A stretch of DNA of 64,000 nucleotides from Polyangiaceae bacterium (GTDB lineage: Bacteria; Myxococcota_A; Polyangia; Polyangiales; Polyangiaceae), in contig JAXLYR010000002.1 of the NCBI GenBank assembly GCA_046351325.1, forward strand, positions 624,334 to 688,333, written 5' to 3'. Shown one piece after another: positions 5,067-21,141 of this stretch. The position numbers were made by a program, and so were the translations under genes. Within the stretch, counting starts at the first letter, position 1. Every line of letters starts with the position of its first letter. The notes below the pieces were generated by a model. It was not told the origin of the DNA and did not search any database. It saw only the letters and a list, made by a program, of their open reading frames with translations.

Positions 5067-6602
5067 TCAGCCAGGCAGAGGCGCGCCGCAGTCGTATCGG
5101 CAGGAGCCGTCGTTGCACCAATTGAAGGGGTAGAAGCACTCGAAGCACTGGCCCAAAGGCGCGCAGAGCGGGCCGCATTGATACTCGTTGACGTCGCAAG
5201 CAGGGTGGCAATCCCAAGCTGGCGTGCAGGTCCCCTCGGGGCCGCATTTGACGTTGGGGTCGATGCAGGGGACGCCGCGATATTGATCGAGCTCCGGCAA
5301 GAGGTCATTCGTGCGCTTTTCGTACCAATCACGGATTTGCTGGTAACGGTCCTCATCGCCATTCCGCAGCATGCCCGCTTGGGTGAGTCGATCGTAGACA
5401 GAGTCGACCAGCGCGACGGGGTCGAGCGCGTTGAAGTCGGCGATCGTTGCCTCGCAGGTCGCGATCGTCTCGGCCCAACAATCGGGGTCGGACTGGCAGC
5501 CGTTGCTCACCGAGTTTGACCCGTAGAGTGGCGTGTATTGATACCACTCTTGGCCGGCGCTGATGTCGATCGAGTAAGGCAGATACATGAACTTGCCGTC
5601 CTCGCGCTCGAGCAAGACGACATTGTTCTGATTGTGGAGCGCGTCGTCGCCAGTCCAGAGCATCCACGACAGACACTGGAACTTCTGGATTGAGGGCCAA
5701 TCCAGGTAATCGGCAGTAGCGGCCTCGAAGCCCGGGCCGGCCGGCGTGTTTTGGAGGATCTGCGCGAGCTCCGAGGCGCGCGTGCCGTCACACGCTGCGA
5801 GCCTGCAGTTCTCCTGCGAATTGAAATCCGTAAAGGGGATGTCGCCGACGAACTCGAAGAGGTTGGGGCAGCTGCCGCCGAGCTGGTCGAGGCGCGCATC
5901 GCAGAAGTCCTTCTTGTAGACCTCCGTCACCGTGTAAGGGATTTGGACGTCCTCACCCCAGACGTTGCTGCCTACCCAAGCATAGGACGCGAGCGGCGCC
6001 GGATAGCCGAGTCCGCGATAGACCTCGAGCGCGATGAGCTCGCGGAAGATCGAACCGACGAGGCCGTTGTTGAAGCGGAAGTGCTCGTAGCCGCCGACGA
6101 GGCCGCCGTCGAACTCGTTTGCGTCGACGCGGAGGTTGGGGATCGAGTCCGCGGTCCAAGGGCGCCACGTCGATTGGCCGATCACGCGAACCTCGACCTG
6201 GCCGTAGTCAGCAGTGGAAGGCTCGTTGCCGCTGGTCGTCACGAACAGGTGATTCGCGTAGGTCGCGTTGCTCTCGCCCGAGCCCCCGGGTTGGTAGATG
6301 TCGCCGTTGGGGAACGGGCCGCCGCCCTGCTGCTCATTCATCTTGGCGACCTCGTCCGGATCGGTCGCAAACCAGAACCGATTGCCGTCCACGCCGAAGA
6401 GGTCGACCGTCTGCTCGCTCGGCTGCATGTTGGGCTTGGGCGCGCCGTCAAGGGTCGGGTCCTCACCCCCGGAGCCGGAGCCGCTGCCGCCGCTGCCGCC
6501 GCCACCATCTTCAGGCGGAGGAGGCGTGATGTACGTGTTGTACGTGTTGCACGCGGTCGCAAGGAGAGCAGCAAAAGCAAGAGATCGTTGTCGACGGATC
6601 AT
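5067..6602 (-). CDS. secreted Cys-rich lipoprotein, possibly CotH-like (uncertain)
   Basis: Signal peptide plus lipobox (LLATAC), a Gly/Ser-rich linker and a Cys-rich C-terminal module. The central region (NQNNVVLLEREDGKFMYLPYSIDIS) loosely resembles CotH kinase-family motifs. Confidence 0.55.
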   Translation of the reverse strand: MIRRQRSLAFAALLATACNTYNTYITPPPPEDGGGGSGGSGSGSGGEDPTLDGAPKPNMQPSEQTVDLFGVDGNRFWFATDPDEVAKMNEQQGGGPFPNGDIYQPGGSGESNATYANHLFVTTSGNEPSTADYGQVEVRVIGQSTWRPWTADSIPNLRVDANEFDGGLVGGYEHFRFNNGLVGSIFRELIALEVYRGLGYPAPLASYAWVGSNVWGEDVQIPYTVTEVYKKDFCDARLDQLGGSCPNLFEFVGDIPFTDFNSQENCRLAACDGTRASELAQILQNTPAGPGFEAATADYLDWPSIQKFQCLSWMLWTGDDALHNQNNVVLLEREDGKFMYLPYSIDISAGQEWYQYTPLYGSNSVSNGCQSDPDCWAETIATCEATIADFNALDPVALVDSVYDRLTQAGMLRNGDEDRYQQIRDWYEKRTNDLLPELDQYRGVPCIDPNVKCGPEGTCTPAWDCHPACDVNEYQCGPLCAPLGQCFECFYPFNWCNDGSCRYDCGAPLPG

Positions 6603-6642
6603 CCGCTTCGCCTAGCGCAGATATGACCCCGACGCACGGCTC

Positions 6643-6679
6643 GGCGAATGGTTTTTGTTGGAGGCTAAAACCATTCGCC
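6643..6679. other. perfect 13-bp stem-loop (ggcgaatggtttt / aaaaccattcgcc) with an 11-nt loop, lying between the usp gene's 3' end and the lipoprotein gene's start
   Basis: Inverted repeat read directly from the sequence. No U-tract follows on either strand. On the minus-strand RNA the loop reads agCCUCCaaca. Confidence 0.4.
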
Positions 6680-6794: not shown

Positions 6795-7703
6795 CTAGCG
6801 AGGTCTCTCTGGGCGCGCGTCGAGCACGCTCGTCGAGGCCTCGCGGGCGAGTCGCTCAGCGACGCTGCCGAGCACCCAGCGCGCGGGCGCGGGCAGTCGG
6901 CGGGTGCCGGTGACGATCAGCGAGGCTTTGTTGGTGCTGGCTGCGGCGAGGATCACGTCGGCGGGCGAGCCGGCGTCGACGCTCGCGCGGCCCTCCAAGG
7001 ACGCCGCCGCCATCGAGGCCTCGAGCGCACCGACGGCCGCGGCCTTCACCGCGCGCTGCTCGTCTCCGCTGTGCGTGGTCGGGACGACCCCCGAGAAGAC
7101 TGCCGTCGCGAGCGCCGCGGCGTCGCTCAACCCGAGCTCGGTCGCGTGCGTCGCGACCACGGGCTCACCGAGCAGCTTGCTCCATCGACTCGCCGTCTCG
7201 AGCACCTCCGACGTCGAGGCCGCCAGATCACACGCGGCGATGATCGGGCCCTCGACGCCCTCACGAGCGACGAGGACGTCGCACGGAGCGCTGCGGATGA
7301 GGGACAGGGCGACGCTGCCGAGCAGCGCCCGCGCGAGGAGCGAATGGGGTCGAGCCCCGACGATCAAGAGATCGGCGCCCCAAGCCTCTGCGCGCCCGAT
7401 GATCGCGTCGGTCGCGTCCCCCATCTCGATGAAGCCGGTGAACGCGTGGCGCTCGCGACCCGTGGCTGCGTGCACGCGCTCCTCGACCAGGGCGCGGCGG
7501 TGATCGAGCTCCTTGCGATCTTCGGCGCGCGTATCGAACGACGCCGCGTCCTCGAGCGAGCCCGGCGTCACCACACTCACCACCCCGAGCGCCGCGTGTG
7601 CTGCGCGGGCCACGCGGTCACCGAACGCGAGCGCCACGTCGCCCGCGTGGTCGAGTTCGGTAGCTACGAGGACGTGACGGTAGACAGCGGTCGACTCGGT
7701 CAT
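6795..7703 (-). CDS. universal stress protein with tandem UspA domains
   Basis: Two Usp-like halves (HVLVATELD... and PIIAACDLAASTSEV...). Length is typical of tandem-Usp proteins. Confidence 0.8.
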   Translation of the reverse strand: MTESTAVYRHVLVATELDHAGDVALAFGDRVARAAHAALGVVSVVTPGSLEDAASFDTRAEDRKELDHRRALVEERVHAATGRERHAFTGFIEMGDATDAIIGRAEAWGADLLIVGARPHSLLARALLGSVALSLIRSAPCDVLVAREGVEGPIIAACDLAASTSEVLETASRWSKLLGEPVVATHATELGLSDAAALATAVFSGVVPTTHSGDEQRAVKAAAVGALEASMAAASLEGRASVDAGSPADVILAAASTNKASLIVTGTRRLPAPARWVLGSVAERLAREASTSVLDARPERPR

Positions 7704-14760: not shown

Positions 14761-16149
14761 TCATGCCTTGAGTTGATCGAACTCGCCGTCTTCGCCGAGG
14801 TTGGGATCCCCGAAGTGGGTCTCGGGTACGCCCATCGCGTTGCACAGCGTCGTAAGCAGCTTGTTGTGGGGGGCGTCAGCGTCGTTGCGCGTATCGGCTT
14901 GAGCGGTGACCTTCACGTACTCACCCTGTTTGAAGTAGCCATTGCAGCCGCCCGCGATGACGACCGGCAAATCACGGAAGTCGTGGTCTTTGCCGTGGGA
15001 GAGCTCGTTCATGAAGACGACGGCCGACTTGTCGAGGACGCTGACGCCGGCCTCTTCATAGGCGTCGAGCTTCGACAGGAGATAGGCATATTCGGTCGCG
15101 TACCAATGGTCGATGTCGAACAGCATGTCCTCGTAGCCGGGGACGTCGCCACCCGAGTTGTCGTCTTTGGTGTTTCCGTGAGAGAGCTTGTGGTGATTGT
15201 ATTGGTGGCTCATCCCGTCCCACGTGAAGATCGGGCCGCCCGCGCCGGAGCCCCACATCATGGTCGCGACCCGGGTCGCCCCGCACGCGATGGCCAGCGC
15301 CAGCACATCCATCTGGAGGCGTCCGACTGTGCGGTAGTCCGAGTCGTTCTGCACAGTGTCGGGGTTGATGCCGTCGAGCTCGGCCTCGGTCCCGGGCGGG
15401 AGCTTGCACTGGATGCTGCCGTTGATGCTCGTCTCGAGGTCACGCACGACGTCGAAGTGCTGTTGGAGCTTCGTCCTGTCGGCCGTGCTCAGCTTGCGCG
15501 AGAGCAGATATTGATATTCACCCTGCACGAGATCGAGCACGCTCTCGCGGCGCGCGGTGAGGCGCGCGAGCTCCTCGTCGCCGAGGTTCCCGAGGCCCAC
15601 CATATCGAGGTAAGCGAGGCGCGGGTTGCTCTCGGCGGTTACAGGTTGGTTACTGCCGGTATAGGAGATATGTCCGAGCACGCCGCTCGCGCGCCAGCCT
15701 GCCATGAGCGCCAGTGCGGGCTTGCCGTCCGCGTTGACGCTCTTCGCGATGTGCTGATCGACCGAGATGCCGTCCGCGTAGACCGAGCCCTCGATGAGCG
15801 GCCTCGCGGTGAGCTTGCAGCCCATGCCCTTCGCGTGGTCGTCGCCCGCCGAGGCATCCCACCCGAAGCCGCGCGGCGACATGTGCATACCGCGCGGGAT
15901 GAGCAGGCGATTCGCGTACGGCGCGAGCGGCGCGAGCGCGCACTCGCTCGTAAAGGAGCCCTCGCTGAGGGCGCCGTAACCGACGTTCGGCCACCAGCGG
16001 TCCATGTTCACGCCGTTGCAGCAGAAGAATACGATGAGGCGCGAGTCGCTCGCGCCCTCGGCGGACGCGACCTTCGGCTTGAGCGACTCGAGGAAGGGCA
16101 GACACAAGGTCGCGCCGAGCGCACCCCGCAAGAATAGGCGCCTCTTCAT
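14761..16149 (-). CDS. DUF1552 family protein (Planctomycete-type) with Tat-like signal
   Basis: Start at the internal M (MKRRLFLRGALGATLCLPFL, RR motif). I recognise the sequence as DUF1552. Its stop overlaps the upstream DUF1592 gene's stop region, and it forms an ATGA overlap at 16146-16149. Confidence 0.75.
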   Translation of the reverse strand: MKRRLFLRGALGATLCLPFLESLKPKVASAEGASDSRLIVFFCCNGVNMDRWWPNVGYGALSEGSFTSECALAPLAPYANRLLIPRGMHMSPRGFGWDASAGDDHAKGMGCKLTARPLIEGSVYADGISVDQHIAKSVNADGKPALALMAGWRASGVLGHISYTGSNQPVTAESNPRLAYLDMVGLGNLGDEELARLTARRESVLDLVQGEYQYLLSRKLSTADRTKLQQHFDVVRDLETSINGSIQCKLPPGTEAELDGINPDTVQNDSDYRTVGRLQMDVLALAIACGATRVATMMWGSGAGGPIFTWDGMSHQYNHHKLSHGNTKDDNSGGDVPGYEDMLFDIDHWYATEYAYLLSKLDAYEEAGVSVLDKSAVVFMNELSHGKDHDFRDLPVVIAGGCNGYFKQGEYVKVTAQADTRNDADAPHNKLLTTLCNAMGVPETHFGDPNLGEDGEFDQLKA

Positions 16150-17846
16150 GGCGTGATCTCCTCTGCGATCCGGAAGCGGAAGGTCTTGGTCTGGGTGAAC
16201 GCGACGAGCATCTCGCCGATGTTGTAACCGCCGGACGCGAGCTTCTCCTCGAGCACACCCATCGTGCACTCGTCAGCGTCGCTCTCCTGTCGCGCGAACG
16301 CGTAGCGATACCACTGTCGCATATAACAAGCGCCCCCCGACTCGCTCTCCGCGATCTGGTTCACGAGGTCGATGGGGCCGTCCACTGCGACGCTCTCGCC
16401 GTCGATCTTGAAGGTGCCAGTCGGGTCGACGGGCTCGCCGTTCTCGGTGGTTCGATAGGCGCCTACGCCGTCGAAGTTCTCGAGCGCATAACCGGGCGCG
16501 TTGATGATCGAGTGACAGCCGGTGCAGCCCGCGGGCGAGGTGTGCGCCTCGACTGCTTGTTTCGTCGTCTTGATGTTCTCGTCGAAGGGCGGGAGCGTCG
16601 TATCGACGTTACCGGGCGGGTCCCCGATCGTGGTGCAGAGGACGCGGCGCTGGACGAACACGCCGCGGTGAATGGGCGACGAGCCGACGGTATAAGCGTG
16701 AGACGCCAAGAAGCCGACCTGCGTGAGGAGCCCTGCGCGCTGGGTCGGGTCGAGCTCGACCTCTACGAAGTCGGGGCCGAACGTCCCTGACAGCCCGTAA
16801 TAGGGAGCGAGCTTGTCGTTCACGAACGTCGTCCGCGAGAGCATCAGCTCGCGGAAGCCGCCCTCGAGTTCGAACGCGACGTGCCGGATGAAGCGCTGCG
16901 TCTCCTCCTTCATCGCCGCGTCCGTGGAGGCGTCGAAGCCGGGATAAACCGACGCGTCCTTTTGAACGTTGTCATAGCGAGCGAGCTGCAGCCACTGGGC
17001 GTGGAAGTCGTCGATTGGACCCTTCGCGCGGGGGTCCGCGAGCAGCCTACGCGCGGCGCTCTCGACGCCCTCGGGCGTGTCGAGCGCGCCCGAGGCCGCC
17101 GCGTCGAGGAGCGCGTCGTCCGGCGTGCTGTTCCAGAGCAGATAAGAGAGCCGCGTCGCGATCTCGAAGCCGGTGAGGGGAATGAGCTTGTCGCTGTCGA
17201 GCTCCTCGGAGAGCTCCACGCGATAGAGGAAGTTCGGCGACTGGAGGAAGGCCTCGATGACGTGGCGAATGCCCTGTTCGAACGGGGTCCCCGAGGCGAA
17301 CTTGCCGTCGCCGCGGCCGTAGAGCGCGAGGTAAGCGGCGGACTCGTCGGTCGTCAGCGGCCGGCGATAGACGCGCCGCCCGAAGTCACGAATGAAGTCT
17401 GTCGCGCAGGCCTCGTCGCCGAGCGACACGTCGCAGGGCACGACGGGGGCGAGGAGCGTCGGGTCCGCGAGCAAGTCGGCGAGCGCCTCGGCGGCGCGTT
17501 GATAGTCGTGCGCGAGGCGCTCGGAGACGACGAGCCCGTCGGCGCTGTTGTCGAAGCCGGCGAACACCGGATCATCGATGAAGTCTTTGCTCGGCGTGAG
17601 GCCCTCGATCTCGAGCAGATCGCTCACCGAGGCGTCGTATTGGCTGTGCGTCAGCCTGACGAGGCGCGGGCGAGGCCCAGGGAGATCGCCTGTCTCGCAG
17701 AGGCCCTCGGTGTCGGGACCGGGGGGTTTGATCGTGTCGGGCTCGTCATCACAGGCGCCGAGCCCGAGGCCGAGACCTCCTATCAGGGTCCATCGGACAA
17801 CGCTGCTCAGGACTGGAATTCTCCAGTATCGGTGGGCTCTGCCCAT
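16146..17846 (-). CDS. DUF1592/DUF1588 family protein with a CxxCH heme-binding motif
   Basis: Start at the internal M (MGRAHRY...) with a strong RBS (GGAGGTGAcc). Signal peptide, a CTGCH motif, and a Planctomycete cytochrome-like context. It is the partner of DUF1552. Confidence 0.75.
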   Translation of the reverse strand: MGRAHRYWRIPVLSSVVRWTLIGGLGLGLGACDDEPDTIKPPGPDTEGLCETGDLPGPRPRLVRLTHSQYDASVSDLLEIEGLTPSKDFIDDPVFAGFDNSADGLVVSERLAHDYQRAAEALADLLADPTLLAPVVPCDVSLGDEACATDFIRDFGRRVYRRPLTTDESAAYLALYGRGDGKFASGTPFEQGIRHVIEAFLQSPNFLYRVELSEELDSDKLIPLTGFEIATRLSYLLWNSTPDDALLDAAASGALDTPEGVESAARRLLADPRAKGPIDDFHAQWLQLARYDNVQKDASVYPGFDASTDAAMKEETQRFIRHVAFELEGGFRELMLSRTTFVNDKLAPYYGLSGTFGPDFVEVELDPTQRAGLLTQVGFLASHAYTVGSSPIHRGVFVQRRVLCTTIGDPPGNVDTTLPPFDENIKTTKQAVEAHTSPAGCTGCHSIINAPGYALENFDGVGAYRTTENGEPVDPTGTFKIDGESVAVDGPIDLVNQIAESESGGACYMRQWYRYAFARQESDADECTMGVLEEKLASGGYNIGEMLVAFTQTKTFRFRIAEEITP

Positions 17847-18035
17847 GGTCACCTCCAAAGGTGACGGTGCGCAAAGCAAGGTGCATACCCTGATAGCGAG
17901 CGGCCCGTTCGGCGGCAGAATTGCTTTGGGCTGTTCGAGCTGCGACTGGCGTGGCGCACCCCACAAGTGGAAATGGCGATGAGTGCGACAGGCTGGACGC
18001 AGTTCGAGAGCGTGAAAAATTACAGAATTGTTCGC

Positions 18036-18084: not shown

Positions 18085-18693
18085 TCACCGAACGATCGTG
18101 CTTTGTCGCGGAGCCGCGCCGAGCGAAGCCAGCTTGGCGAAGGCCCGTCGCAGCCAGTGCGCCAAGCTCGTCTTGCCGGACGAGCGCGCCCACGCGACGA
18201 CGGCCGACTCGAGCGCGCCGACGATCGCGCGGGCCGCGACCATGCGGCCGAGGGCGTCCCCGAAGGTCCGCTTCGCGGTGAAGACCTCGATTAGGTGATT
18301 GGCGAGGAGCGCCTGATCCGACCGGGCGCGGTCCCCGATCTCGGGGTGGGCGAGGAGCAGTCGCGTCCTCCTCAATATCCGGTCTCGATCCTCCGAATAG
18401 ACGTCAGCGACAGCGGTGATCAAGGCGTCGCGGACAGCGTCGAGCGGGGTCGGAGAGGGCAGCGCCGCCCGTATTCGAGAGAGGAGGTCGGCGTCGTAGT
18501 CGTCCCAAAGGATGATTCGTTCCTTCGTCTCGAAGTTCCGATAGACGGTCGCCGGGCCGACGCCAGCGGCGCGCGCGATGGCCTCGACGGTGACGGCCTC
18601 GAAGCCGTGCTCTTCGAATAGCGTGAGCGCCGCTGCCTGCACTCGCCGCATCGCCTCCACTCGCCGCTCCCGACGCCCGTCGCGCTCTTGCAT
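18085..18693 (-). CDS. TetR family transcriptional regulator
   Basis: N-terminal HTH (TVEAIARAAGVGPATVYRNFETKE). Start taken at MQERDG. Confidence 0.8.
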   Translation of the reverse strand: MQERDGRRERRVEAMRRVQAAALTLFEEHGFEAVTVEAIARAAGVGPATVYRNFETKERIILWDDYDADLLSRIRAALPSPTPLDAVRDALITAVADVYSEDRDRILRRTRLLLAHPEIGDRARSDQALLANHLIEVFTAKRTFGDALGRMVAARAIVGALESAVVAWARSSGKTSLAHWLRRAFAKLASLGAAPRQSTIVR

Positions 18694-18747
18694 TCCGAAG
18701 TCCCCTTGACAGAAGTGAGAGTAACTCTCATTTGATTCGGCATGCAA
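18688..18747. promoter_or_regulatory. Nested palindrome in the 48-bp tetR/kinase intergenic region: outer arms ttgcattccgaa/ttcggcatgcaa contain both start codons, the inner arms are TGAGAGTaACTCTCA (probable TetR operator), and there is a perfect TTGACA at 18706-18711
   Basis: Inverted repeats and the -35 hexamer were read directly from the sequence. The operator assignment rests on TetR-family precedent. Confidence 0.45.
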
Positions 18748-20139
18748 GAGACTTCCCGACTTCGAGCCTCCGAGCTCGCCGAACGCCTATTGTCCAGTGA
18801 GCGATCGATGACGAGCTCTCGCCTCGGGCGCTTCATCGGCACGACGCGCGCCGGGGCGAGCTTGGCGCGGACTGTATTGTCCGCGTCGCGCCGCGCGCCC
18901 GATCTCGAGCGCGTCGCGCGCGTCGTGGAGCAGGTCGGCGAGCTCAAGGGCGTCGCGATGAAGGCAGGGCAAATCCTCGGCTACATGGACCCGAGCCTGC
19001 ACGGTGACCTGCGCGCGATGCTCTCCGTTTTGCAGAAGAGCGCGACGGCGAGTCCGTGGACCCATGTCGAGGCCACCGTTCGTTCGGCGTTCGGGCCGCG
19101 CGCTGACACGCTCCTCGCAGGGCTCGAGCGAACGCCGATCGCGGTCGCCAGCGTGGGCCAGGTCCACCTCGCGACGCTCGCGGACGGGCGACGCGTCGTG
19201 GTCAAGGTCCGACATCCCAACATCGAAGCGGCGTTCAAGCAGGACCTCGCCGGGGCAGGTGTCGGCAGCCTGCTCGCGAGCACCTTGGTGCCGGGCGCCG
19301 GCGGTCGCGTCCGCGAGATGGTGGACGAGGCGCGGACGGCGTTCCTCGAGGAGTGCGACTATGGCCTAGAGGCCTCGCGACAGCAGCGATTTCGAGAGCT
19401 GTTCGGCGGGCACGGCGCGCGCGGTCTCGTCGTTCCGACCATTGTCGCGGAGTGGTGTGCGCCGAGTGTGCTTACAGCCGAGTATGTCCCGGGCGAGGGG
19501 CTGGAGTCCTTCGCCGCGCGAGCGTCACAAGCGGATCGCGACCGCGCGGCCGCGGCGCTCTTCGAGTTCTATGTCGGGACGCTCTATCGACATGGGGTTT
19601 TCCACGCCGATCCCCACCCAGGCAACTTCGCGTTTTTGCCGGACGCAGGGGTCGTCGTCTACGACTATGGCTGTGTCCGCACGTTCGAGGAGCGCGACGT
19701 CGCTGCGTTCGCGGCGCTCTCGAGCGCGGTCGCCCGCGACGATCTCGCCGAGATGATCGCGGCCTTCACCGCGCTCGGTGGGAGCGTGAAGAGGACGAGC
19801 GCCGCGACGCTGCGCGACCTGCTTCGTGGCTTCTTCGCCCCGATGCTCCAGCGCGGACCGCACCGAATCGAGACTCGGCGGGCGCTCGACGCGGCGGAGC
19901 TCCTCGAGGACAAACGTGCGCTCCTCGGCCTGGGCGTTCCGGGCCGAATGCTGTTTCTATTTCGGCTCCGGTTCGGCCTCTATGCCGTATTCGAGCGACT
20001 CGGCGCGGAGCTCGATTGGGCGGCGCTGGAGGCTCGGGCTCGAGCGCGCGCGCAGCCTCAACCGCCGCCTGGGCAGGCGAGCTCCAGCGGGTATGAGAAC
20101 CGCTCCACCGAGACGTCGAGCGTCCCCGTCATGACCTGA
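18742..20139 (+). CDS. ABC1/UbiB/ADCK family atypical protein kinase
   Basis: Motifs IAVASVGQVHLATLADGRRVVVKVRHP and FHADPHPGNF. It is divergent from tetR. Confidence 0.8.
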   Translation: MQETSRLRASELAERLLSSERSMTSSRLGRFIGTTRAGASLARTVLSASRRAPDLERVARVVEQVGELKGVAMKAGQILGYMDPSLHGDLRAMLSVLQKSATASPWTHVEATVRSAFGPRADTLLAGLERTPIAVASVGQVHLATLADGRRVVVKVRHPNIEAAFKQDLAGAGVGSLLASTLVPGAGGRVREMVDEARTAFLEECDYGLEASRQQRFRELFGGHGARGLVVPTIVAEWCAPSVLTAEYVPGEGLESFAARASQADRDRAAAALFEFYVGTLYRHGVFHADPHPGNFAFLPDAGVVVYDYGCVRTFEERDVAAFAALSSAVARDDLAEMIAAFTALGGSVKRTSAATLRDLLRGFFAPMLQRGPHRIETRRALDAAELLEDKRALLGLGVPGRMLFLFRLRFGLYAVFERLGAELDWAALEARARARAQPQPPPGQASSSGYENRSTETSSVPVMT

Positions 20140-21044
20140 TCCATCATGGGGTCGCCGCCCGTGAGCGTCGCCGTGAAGGTGCCGCTCAATCGCCCTGATG
20201 CGGTGTCGACGGTCAGCTCACCATTCGAGCCGATGAGGTCCACGATATAGGTGTAGCCGACCGACGTCGCAGTGTCTGTCCAGGTGATCTGCGTGAGTCC
20301 CGAGGCCACGCCCGAAGGGTCCACTCCGAAGTCGATGCGGAGCGCCTGAATGCCACCTGGGACGTCACGCGCGGAGTTCAGCGTCACGGACTCGGAGCCG
20401 TCGGCCGCGGGCGCGAAGATCCCATATCCAAAGAGGCCGTCGAGGTCGTACACGGCGCTCTCCCCCATGAAGTCGATGCTTACAGTGCCGTCACCGAGAC
20501 CGTCGGGCCCAGCCGGGTAAGCGTAGGGGTCGACCAAAATGGCATATCGGCCGAGTCTGCCGACGAATTGTTGGAGGGAGGTCGACGTCACGCCGCAGGC
20601 CTCGAACTCCTGAAAGGTCTGCGTGCCCTCGTCCACGACCGCCATCGAATGGCGCAGATCACTCTCGGGGAAGGAGAGCGTGAGATCCGCGGGCGCAGCG
20701 AGCACGAGATCGGCCGGGCCGATGTCGAAGACGGGGGATGCGAGGTCGCGATTGTAGGGGGCGGCAGGAGGATCTTGGTCGAGTTGGATGGAAAGCTCGG
20801 TCGACGTGGTGAGCGCGCCCGCTGGGATGACGAGTCGAGCCCCGCAATACTCGAGCTCTCCGCCGTCGGGTCCGATGGTCGTGACGACGCCCTCGGGGGG
20901 ACAGTTCGCTGCGGCGCCGCCGCTGCCACCGACACCCTCGCCGCCCGCGTTCGAGCCGCCGGCGCCCGAGCCACCGGGGCCGCTCGCGTCACCACAACCG
21001 GCCGCCAAGAGACCTGCTGCCAAGATCGAAAGAACAAAGCGCAT
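20058..21044 (-). CDS. hypothetical lipoprotein
   Basis: Start at the internal M (MRFVLSILAAGLLAAGCGDA) giving a lipobox, followed by a Gly-rich linker. Convergently overlaps the kinase 3' end. Confidence 0.5.
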   Translation of the reverse strand: MRFVLSILAAGLLAAGCGDASGPGGSGAGGSNAGGEGVGGSGGAAANCPPEGVVTTIGPDGGELEYCGARLVIPAGALTTSTELSIQLDQDPPAAPYNRDLASPVFDIGPADLVLAAPADLTLSFPESDLRHSMAVVDEGTQTFQEFEACGVTSTSLQQFVGRLGRYAILVDPYAYPAGPDGLGDGTVSIDFMGESAVYDLDGLFGYGIFAPAADGSESVTLNSARDVPGGIQALRIDFGVDPSGVASGLTQITWTDTATSVGYTYIVDLIGSNGELTVDTASGRLSGTFTATLTGGDPMMDQVMTGTLDVSVERFSYPLELACPGGG

Positions 21045-21141
21045 AGCGTTCCCTACCGCCCGACGCACGCGCTCGCAAGCTGGTCGCGCAGCACGCGTCC
21101 CTCTTGGCAAGAACCGCCACGCTGGTTAGACCTCGGGCGTC

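Follow-up and report, generated by a model that had tools for sequence, protein, structure and literature searches.

We examined a divergent gene pair, and the short region that separates it, in a 64,000-nucleotide stretch of DNA from a Polyangiaceae bacterium (hereafter the window; G+C content 67.5%). A tetR-family regulator gene occupies 18085..18693 on the minus strand and encodes 202 amino acids from the ATG at 18693, with TetR_N and TetR_C_14 ('MftR C-terminal') domains. On the plus strand, 18742..20139 encodes a 465-amino acid atypical kinase/ATPase of the ABC1/UbiB family (Pfam ABC1; hereafter the kinase). The regulator lies in a minus-strand open reading frame (ORF) that spans 18085..18747 and has an in-frame ATG at 18693..18691. 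From this codon its N-terminus reads MQERDG, and the kinase ORF reads MQETSR from the ATG at 18742 – bearing out an initial annotation of this DNA, in which both genes begin MQE at divergent ATGs. The gap between the two ATGs is 48 bp (18694..18741), and the segment 18680-18760 that spans it has the sequence tcgcgCTCTTGCATTCCGAAgtccccTTGACAgaagTGAGAGTaACTCTCAtttgaTTCGGCATGCAAGAGacttcc. The segment contains a perfect palindrome, a TTGACA hexamer to its left and, in outer position, an inverted repeat whose arms hold the start codons.

A kinase-based scan of one genome per species returned 53 loci, nearly all of them in metagenome-assembled genomes of Myxococcota. A divergent homologue of the window TetR lies directly upstream of the kinase in 10 of these loci. 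The same gene pair and palindrome were also reached via TetR homologues of 45-75% identity (our loci L057-L063, L080-L085 and L090), and a locus found through a kinase homologue 73% identical (L092) has the same architecture. Scanning metagenomes with the TetR protein gave generic helix-turn-helix matches only (L064-L079). The divergent gap of the relatives is mostly 17-63 bp and reaches ~200-250 bp in L042. Nine tetR-less kinase homologues were inspected, and a different N-terminal type (M-S/P/A-K-D-P) was found in L004, L009, L010, L012 and L037; the upstream regions of such homologues are obscured by spurious ORFs in high-G+C DNA.

The palindrome, TGAGAGT-A-ACTCTCA (18716..18730), is a perfect 7-1-7 dyad centred on 18723. 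It extends to a 10-1-10 dyad over 18713-18733, with 9 of 10 positions matching between the half-sites (18713-18722 and 18724-18733). A count matrix of 26 sites from 20 loci yielded the consensus TGAKAGT-n-ACTMTCA, in which positions +/-1 to +/-7 are nearly invariant, and a generalised operator pattern allowing at most two mismatches occurs once in the 64 kb, against 0.16 occurrences expected. When the 53 kinase loci were searched with the pattern, the dyad was found upstream of the kinase in all 10 that have a divergent tetR and in none of the others. One or two copies are present in the gap of each tetR-bearing kinase locus, as in TGTGATAGTAACTATCACA and ATATGATAGTTACTATCATAT. Distant TetR homologues with other neighbours likewise keep the dyad beside tetR, in L086 (a Devosia genome) and in L088 (next to an ABC transporter). 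Since the dyad persists beside tetR despite these different neighbours, the motif tracks the regulator and not the kinase. The DNA-reading helix region of the regulator, GVGPATVYRNFxTKE, is highly conserved. The retention of the motif in 20 loci, following tetR even where the partner gene differs, supports the initial annotation of the inner palindrome as a TetR operator – here the putative operator of the adjacent TetR-family protein.

Some relatives carry tandem operators (L011, L014, L029, L042 and L090), which are invariably 17 bp apart from centre to centre and share flanking bases. With this spacing, the helix would present two bound dimers on more or less opposite sides. When the window was searched at the same 17-bp distance from 18723 for a further, degenerate operator, none was found on the left and, on the right, only TTTGAT as a resemblance. 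L042 has two tandem operator pairs: the first (2682-2711) is at the start of tetR, the second (2912-2941) follows after ~200 bp at the start of the kinase gene, and each ATG stands in the same register to its nearest operator. These separate pairs suggest that both genes are under control.

The second conserved element is the TTGACA hexamer (18706..18711, plus strand), which has the position of a kinase -35. In a DNA alignment of 13 loci, CTTGAC(A) (18705-18711 in the window) and the dyad are the sole invariant blocks: CTTGAC is invariant, the final A is present in 12 of the 13 and the flanks diverge. The hexamer stands 3-4 nt left of the dyad in all 13 aligned loci. Downstream of it, a -10-like CATTTG (18729..18734) would follow after a 17-nt spacer and overlap the right edge of the operator; TCATTT (18728-18733), after a 16-nt spacer, is an alternative candidate. 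In the relatives, the hexamer that begins with the last two operator bases is CATATT, CACAAT, CATATC, CATATG or CATTTG, again with a spacer of 16-17 nt. The initial annotation had proposed that the operator overlaps the spacer and -10 region of a kinase promoter with a perfect -35, and the alignment agrees with this arrangement. By phylogenetic footprinting, the reading of these blocks as a putative operator and kinase promoter is well supported.

The kinase promoter so placed predicts a transcription start at 18741..18742, 7-8 nt past the end of the -10 and on the A of the ATG or 1 nt before it. No Shine-Dalgarno sequence is present in 18731-18741, and the ATG is preceded by TTTGATTCGGC. The same geometry recurs in L057-63, L092, L085, L002 and L003: in these loci, as in the window, TTGACA begins 35-37 nt from the kinase ATG, no Shine-Dalgarno sequence is present, and the A of the ATG is 7-9 nt past the -10-like hexamer. 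Among the relatives, those with a dyad-to-ATG distance of at most 12 nt have no Shine-Dalgarno sequence, whereas those with 16-45 nt have AAGGAG, GGAGGAG or GAGGG; in L083, L080/L084 and L014/L011, where the ATG is 21-45 nt past the dyad, a Shine-Dalgarno sequence stands at the proper distance. Because of this contrast, we read the short-gap versions, the window included, as leaderless or near-leaderless. The kinase mRNA is thus probably leaderless or nearly so, judging from the geometry and the relatives. Very short-leader or leaderless transcripts had been suggested; the suggestion probably holds for the kinase, and at tetR no convincing promoter or leaderless geometry is visible in the window. 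A literature search on leaderless transcripts in Myxococcus found nothing relevant.

The outer inverted repeat consists of a left arm, CTCTTGCATTCCGAA (18685..18699), which contains the tetR start codon (CAT, 18691-18693), and a right arm, TTCGGCATGCAAGAG (18736..18750), which contains the kinase start codon (ATG, 18742-18744). The arms are 36 nt apart and complementary at 14 of 15 positions – a repeat with one mismatch that holds both start codons, as first described, and is longer than was then reported. Its description as part of one symmetric, nested palindrome did not hold up. The outer centre lies at 18717.5, 5.5 bp from that of the dyad, so the two are not concentric, and the outer repeat is partial within the closest clade and absent beyond it. 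A perfect 10-bp repeat, TCTTGCATGG/CCATGCAAGA, remains in L057-59 and 9-10 of 11-12 positions in L060, L062 and L092, while L085, L002, L003, L080, L083 and L084 lack the repeat. In the closest clade the kinase side is constant (ATGCAAGA) and the tetR side varies (ATGCAAGAT, ATGAACGAT, ATGCACGAA, ATGAACGAC). The origin of the repeat is that the sense strand of either gene starts with TTCGG(A/C)-ATG-CAA-GAG, and it is most likely a by-product of these shared gene starts.

We consider it unlikely that the outer repeat has a function of its own, be it as a start-hiding stem in a longer transcript, as a cruciform, or as a target for another protein or for an additional pair of repressor dimers. 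Such a function would be in keeping with the fold of 18680-18755 as RNA, a nested hairpin of -29.5 kcal/mol (z = -4.8 against shuffles), with the recurrence of parts of the repeat in the closest clade (L057-59, and L060 and L062 with 10/12 and 10/11 matches) and with a third codon that is identical between the two genes in four of six sub-lineages. However, good folding is inherent to any inverted repeat, and inverted repeats of equal quality (at least 14/15 matches, loop of at most 60 nt) arise about twice per shuffled window, against three loci in the real one. The third-codon matches come from related lineages, do not amount to significant covariation and are broken by L063. The 5.5-bp offset means that one symmetric complex cannot read both repeats, and the left arm would lie outside a kinase transcript that started at ~18742. 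The absence of the repeat from the six loci named above argues in the same direction.

The position of the start codons decides whether there is a 48-bp gap at all. NCBI records begin both proteins later, TetR with 188 amino acids (P0001; M33, 18651) and the kinase with 443 (P0121; M23, 18808), that is, 14 and 22 codons downstream of the starts that homologues and structural models back. Were these records right, the starts would lie outside the repeat, in a 156-bp intergenic region with room for ordinary leaders; several homologues are also called from the methionine equivalent to M33. We regard this as quite improbable. The block DGRxRRRxxAMRRVQ, N-terminal to M33, is conserved across the TetR family in question, and the AlphaFold model of the regulator (predicted local distance difference test score, 92; nine helices) has a first helix at residues 4-29 of the 202-amino acid form, which a start at M33 would truncate. 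Kinase residues 1-22 are kept, with third-position changes, in relatives 73-75% identical, and residues 2-18 form a confident helix in the AlphaFold model. Relatives with 17-23 bp between the ATGs have conserved N-termini that begin right at the operator. Kinase starts before 18742 are excluded by an in-frame TGA at 18733-18735, and the NCBI kinase start at M23 is probably too late.

The best-supported starts are therefore the ATGs at 18693 (tetR) and 18742 (kinase), the pair initially chosen; homologue conservation, in-frame stops in relatives and the AlphaFold models support them. Because the start-codon evidence favours these two codons, the 48-bp gap stands. Both N-termini at this locus appear to have been shortened by automatic annotation, an error typical of genes without a Shine-Dalgarno sequence. 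The late NCBI starts fit gene callers that overlook starts of this kind.

A tetR start at the TTG at 18747 would make the two genes overlap and turn the operator into coding sequence, a condition that the initial annotation had itself named. The frame is open from 18747 (HAESNESYSHFCQGDFG peptides; a 220-amino acid protein would be expected), and one relative (P0006 in L002) is called with such an extension. In eight related loci (L058, L059, L060, L080, L084, L085, L090 and L086), however, a stop inside or beside the operator closes the tetR frame, which contradicts an overlap. The extra residues simply result from reading the conserved dyad as codons, and TTG is rarely used as a start. The symmetric conservation of the DNA, moreover, is what a binding site would show and a coding region would not. 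A start at 18747 is very improbable on these grounds. It is just as hard to credit that another factor binds the dyad, or that the dyad has no regulatory role and the adjacency of tetR and kinase is coincidental: although 43 of the 53 kinase homologues of the genome scan have no tetR neighbour, the dyad strictly co-occurs with tetR, also in lineages with a neighbour other than an ABC1 gene, and the DNA-reading helix region is highly conserved.

For tetR itself, the search for a promoter gave no convincing site. A speculative candidate on the minus strand (18718..18747) combines TTGCAT (18747-18742) and TACTCT (18723-18718) with an 18-nt spacer, its -35 being the minus-strand reading of ATGCAA. 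The arrangement TTGCAT-17 nt-TACTCT is present in L058 and L060 and absent in L085, L002, L003, L080, L083 and L084, and we have low confidence in it even as a tetR promoter of the closest clade. Two other arrangements, a CAyaTt -10 in mirror image and an extended -10 of the sequence TGTGATAGT, likewise fail to hold in all clades. An AAGGGG lies 8 nt upstream of the tetR ATG in the window and is unconserved in relatives. A tetR promoter out of reach of the operator would not fit into the gap, so TetR very probably limits its own synthesis.

Taken together, these results make it likely that the 48-bp gap is a compact two-way control region in which a TetR operator lies over the kinase promoter. 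A dimer of the adjacent TetR-family protein would bind the 15-bp dyad at 18716-18730. The dyad fills the spacer of the predicted kinase promoter and overlaps its -10 (-35 at 18706-18711; -10-like hexamer at 18729-18734), so that bound repressor would exclude RNA polymerase. Once released, the promoter would start transcription with the first base of the kinase ATG or one base earlier, giving a leaderless or nearly leaderless mRNA. Any tetR promoter would have to share the 48 bp and the first kinase codons, and the repressor would then very probably curb its own expression. Release would come from a small hydrophobic ligand, a class suggested by the MftR-like, acyl-CoA-sensor-like C-terminal domain of the regulator.

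Several points weigh against this interpretation. The whole case is built on sequence comparison, and palindromes or inverted repeats of such quality are no commoner in the window than in shuffled sequence: it has 13 perfect 7-1-7 palindromes against 12.4 in dinucleotide shuffles. TTGACA occurs six times on both strands (three on the plus strand) against 9.4 expected. We take the inner dyad and TTGACA as functional because they are conserved in related loci, not from window statistics. A scan of 18400-19000 with consensus sigma-70 elements gave no promoter match, which we attribute to the weak -10; the -10 of the window is poor in either form, CATTTG or TCATTT. The TTGACA geometry is absent where the ATGs are 17-23 bp apart (L015, L030, L020 and L007), so the layout is not uniform. 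The NCBI records start both proteins later, and no shared tetR promoter was found across the relatives, which leaves autoregulation resting on the lack of space. As to the ligand class, similarities of fold and family allow no more than a guess; the ligand may be hydrophobic, with a lipid, an acyl-CoA or a xenobiotic likeliest.

The loci with the shortest gaps show how tightly the elements can be packed. In L015 and L030, both start codons lie at the ends of a 29-bp perfect palindrome, CATGTTGTGATAGT-n-ACTATCACAACATG (with A at the centre in L015). In L007 and L020, just 17 bp separate the two ATGs. The first five tetR codons of these two loci (MRVTP or MKVTP; ~2970-2995 in L007, ~2968-2995 in L020) form a degenerate second copy of the operator, and binding site and N-terminal coding sequence overlap. 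As judged from these layouts, the window is a looser variant of the start-codons-in-palindrome design, with a consensus -35 placed between tetR and the putative operator.

On a broader reading, a single short palindrome would combine three roles across this family of Myxococcota loci: it would bind the repressor, provide the -10 region of both divergent promoters and hold the two start codons, as exemplified by the 29-bp palindrome of L015 and the 17-bp gap of L007 and L020. It would form a two-way switch of two leaderless genes, in which the ABC1/UbiB ATPase acts as an inducible, MABP-1-like handler of lipids or xenobiotics. We consider this possible but doubtful. If true, such a minimal leaderless switch would offer a rare direct handle on the roles of non-ubiquinone ABC1 proteins in bacteria.

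Other loci and the surroundings of the pair provide some additional observations. In L054 (2300-3060), whose TetR (P0005) is 72% identical, the kinase and the operator are lost: the family pattern ends at CTTGACACA and the sequence then diverges, in what looks like a rearrangement that broke the module. In L047 (~2960-2995), which has a kinase 55% identical and no tetR, AATATCATTTGGTCATGAGC lies just upstream of the kinase ATG after an unusually A+T-rich stretch; it resembles the right half of the operator with its flank and may be a remnant of tetR loss. The pair in the window is flanked by genes for a DUF1592/1588/1595/1587/1585 multi-domain protein (16146-17966, minus strand) and a ZU5-domain protein (20058-21110, minus strand). 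Neither adjoins the pair in L092, and the module thus consists of the two genes only. Elsewhere in the window, at 6641-6677 between the minus-strand ORFs 5067..6602 and 6795..7703, GGCGAATGGTTTT and AAAACCATTCGCC form a perfect stem of 13 bp around a loop of 11 nt, TGTTGGAGGCT; neither strand has a T-run after the stem.

The regulator has the hallmarks of a TetR-family switch: a TetR_N domain (PF00440; 2.7e-15; residues 20-61 of the 202-amino acid form), an all-helical C-terminal domain (TetR_C_14; 2.7e-09), a co-conserved adjacent operator and a short divergent gap. All the PDB matches of its model listed by Foldseek are TetR-family or TetR-type regulators. The nearest folds are SCO0337 and MftR (template modelling (TM) score 0.73-0.83), followed by the acyl-CoA sensors FadR, DesT and FasR. 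Mycobacterial MftR (PDB 8x0a), the second-best fold match, shares TetR_C_14 with the regulator and is also its best NCBIfam match (TIGR03968), at 82.2 bits, below the cut-off of 224.9. MftR recognises the operator T-N2-GGCA-N5-TGCC-N2-A, from which long-chain acyl-CoAs release it as inducers (PMC8728441), a hint at the ligand class here. That operator is unrelated to TGAKAGT-n-ACTMTCA, and no mft gene lies beside tetR in the window. Orthology with MftR is thus ruled out by score, operator and gene context, the neighbours being ABC1 and DUF1592-family genes.

The kinase matches Pfam ABC1 (PF03109) at 1.1e-52, and alignment to Rv3197, MSMEG_1954 and COQ8A identified intact KxGQ, ASVGQVH, VKVRHP, HADPHPGN and YDYG motifs. 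With UbiB/COQ8, the ubiquinone-biosynthesis factor, it shares the ABC1 domain, KxGQ, the Ala/Ser-rich loop, the catalytic Lys and the HxDxHPGN loop. It scores below the UbiB cut-offs, however (168 vs 487.55 for TIGR01982; 120.5 vs 667 for PRK04750), and its hydrophilic C-terminus, modelled as disordered, has no segment resembling a membrane anchor; the protein is probably soluble.

The closest solved relative by sequence is Rv3197 (MABP-1; E 4.9e-34). Rv3197 and MSMEG_1954 belong to the ABC1-type ATPases of mycobacteria and are macrolide binders (PMC6208485, PMC8696161), and Rv3197 is erythromycin-inducible and confers resistance, with no TetR control described in that report (PMC6208485). They share with the kinase of the window a UbiB-like kinase fold, extra N-terminal helices and, probably, solubility. 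A specific likeness to MABP-1 was rejected: the kinase scores 136.1 against the NF050082 cut-off of 800, and the best fold match of its model is COQ8A (TM score 0.65-0.80), with the mycobacterial ATPases equally close. By analogy with these ATPases, an inducible role in small-molecule handling is conceivable.

The initial annotation had called an ABC1 kinase an unusual regulatory target. That view is fair. A literature search found no paper on a TetR-controlled ABC1/UbiB gene, but the pairing is a conserved module and not a one-off. ABC1/UbiB-type proteins outside ubiquinone synthesis are poorly understood, and a neighbouring ligand-sensing repressor provides a practical route to their function – the TetR inducer, once found, would tell what the kinase responds to. 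The comparison also establishes what the operators of this TetR subfamily have in common across Myxococcota and beyond: the consensus TGAKAGT-n-ACTMTCA and, in tandem copies, a spacing of 17 bp.

Tn10 TetR/tetA and QacR/qacA are divergent repressor-target pairs with palindromic operators over promoters, release by ligand and self-control. The window shares with Tn10-like switches a divergent repressor gene and a putative operator that, in a short control region, overlaps a predicted promoter. Tn10 has two tetO sites; tandem operators likewise occur in the relatives described here, and the window has a single one. The half-site hexamers TGATAG/CTATCA are the classical tetO words facing outward instead of inward, probably by coincidence; with the words everted, the binding geometry would differ. 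The Tn10 and QacR targets are efflux pumps, whereas the target here is a predicted soluble ABC1/UbiB-type ATPase with a probably leaderless transcript. The design is that of a textbook TetR divergent switch, conventional in its layout, with an ABC1 target that is conserved but less usual.

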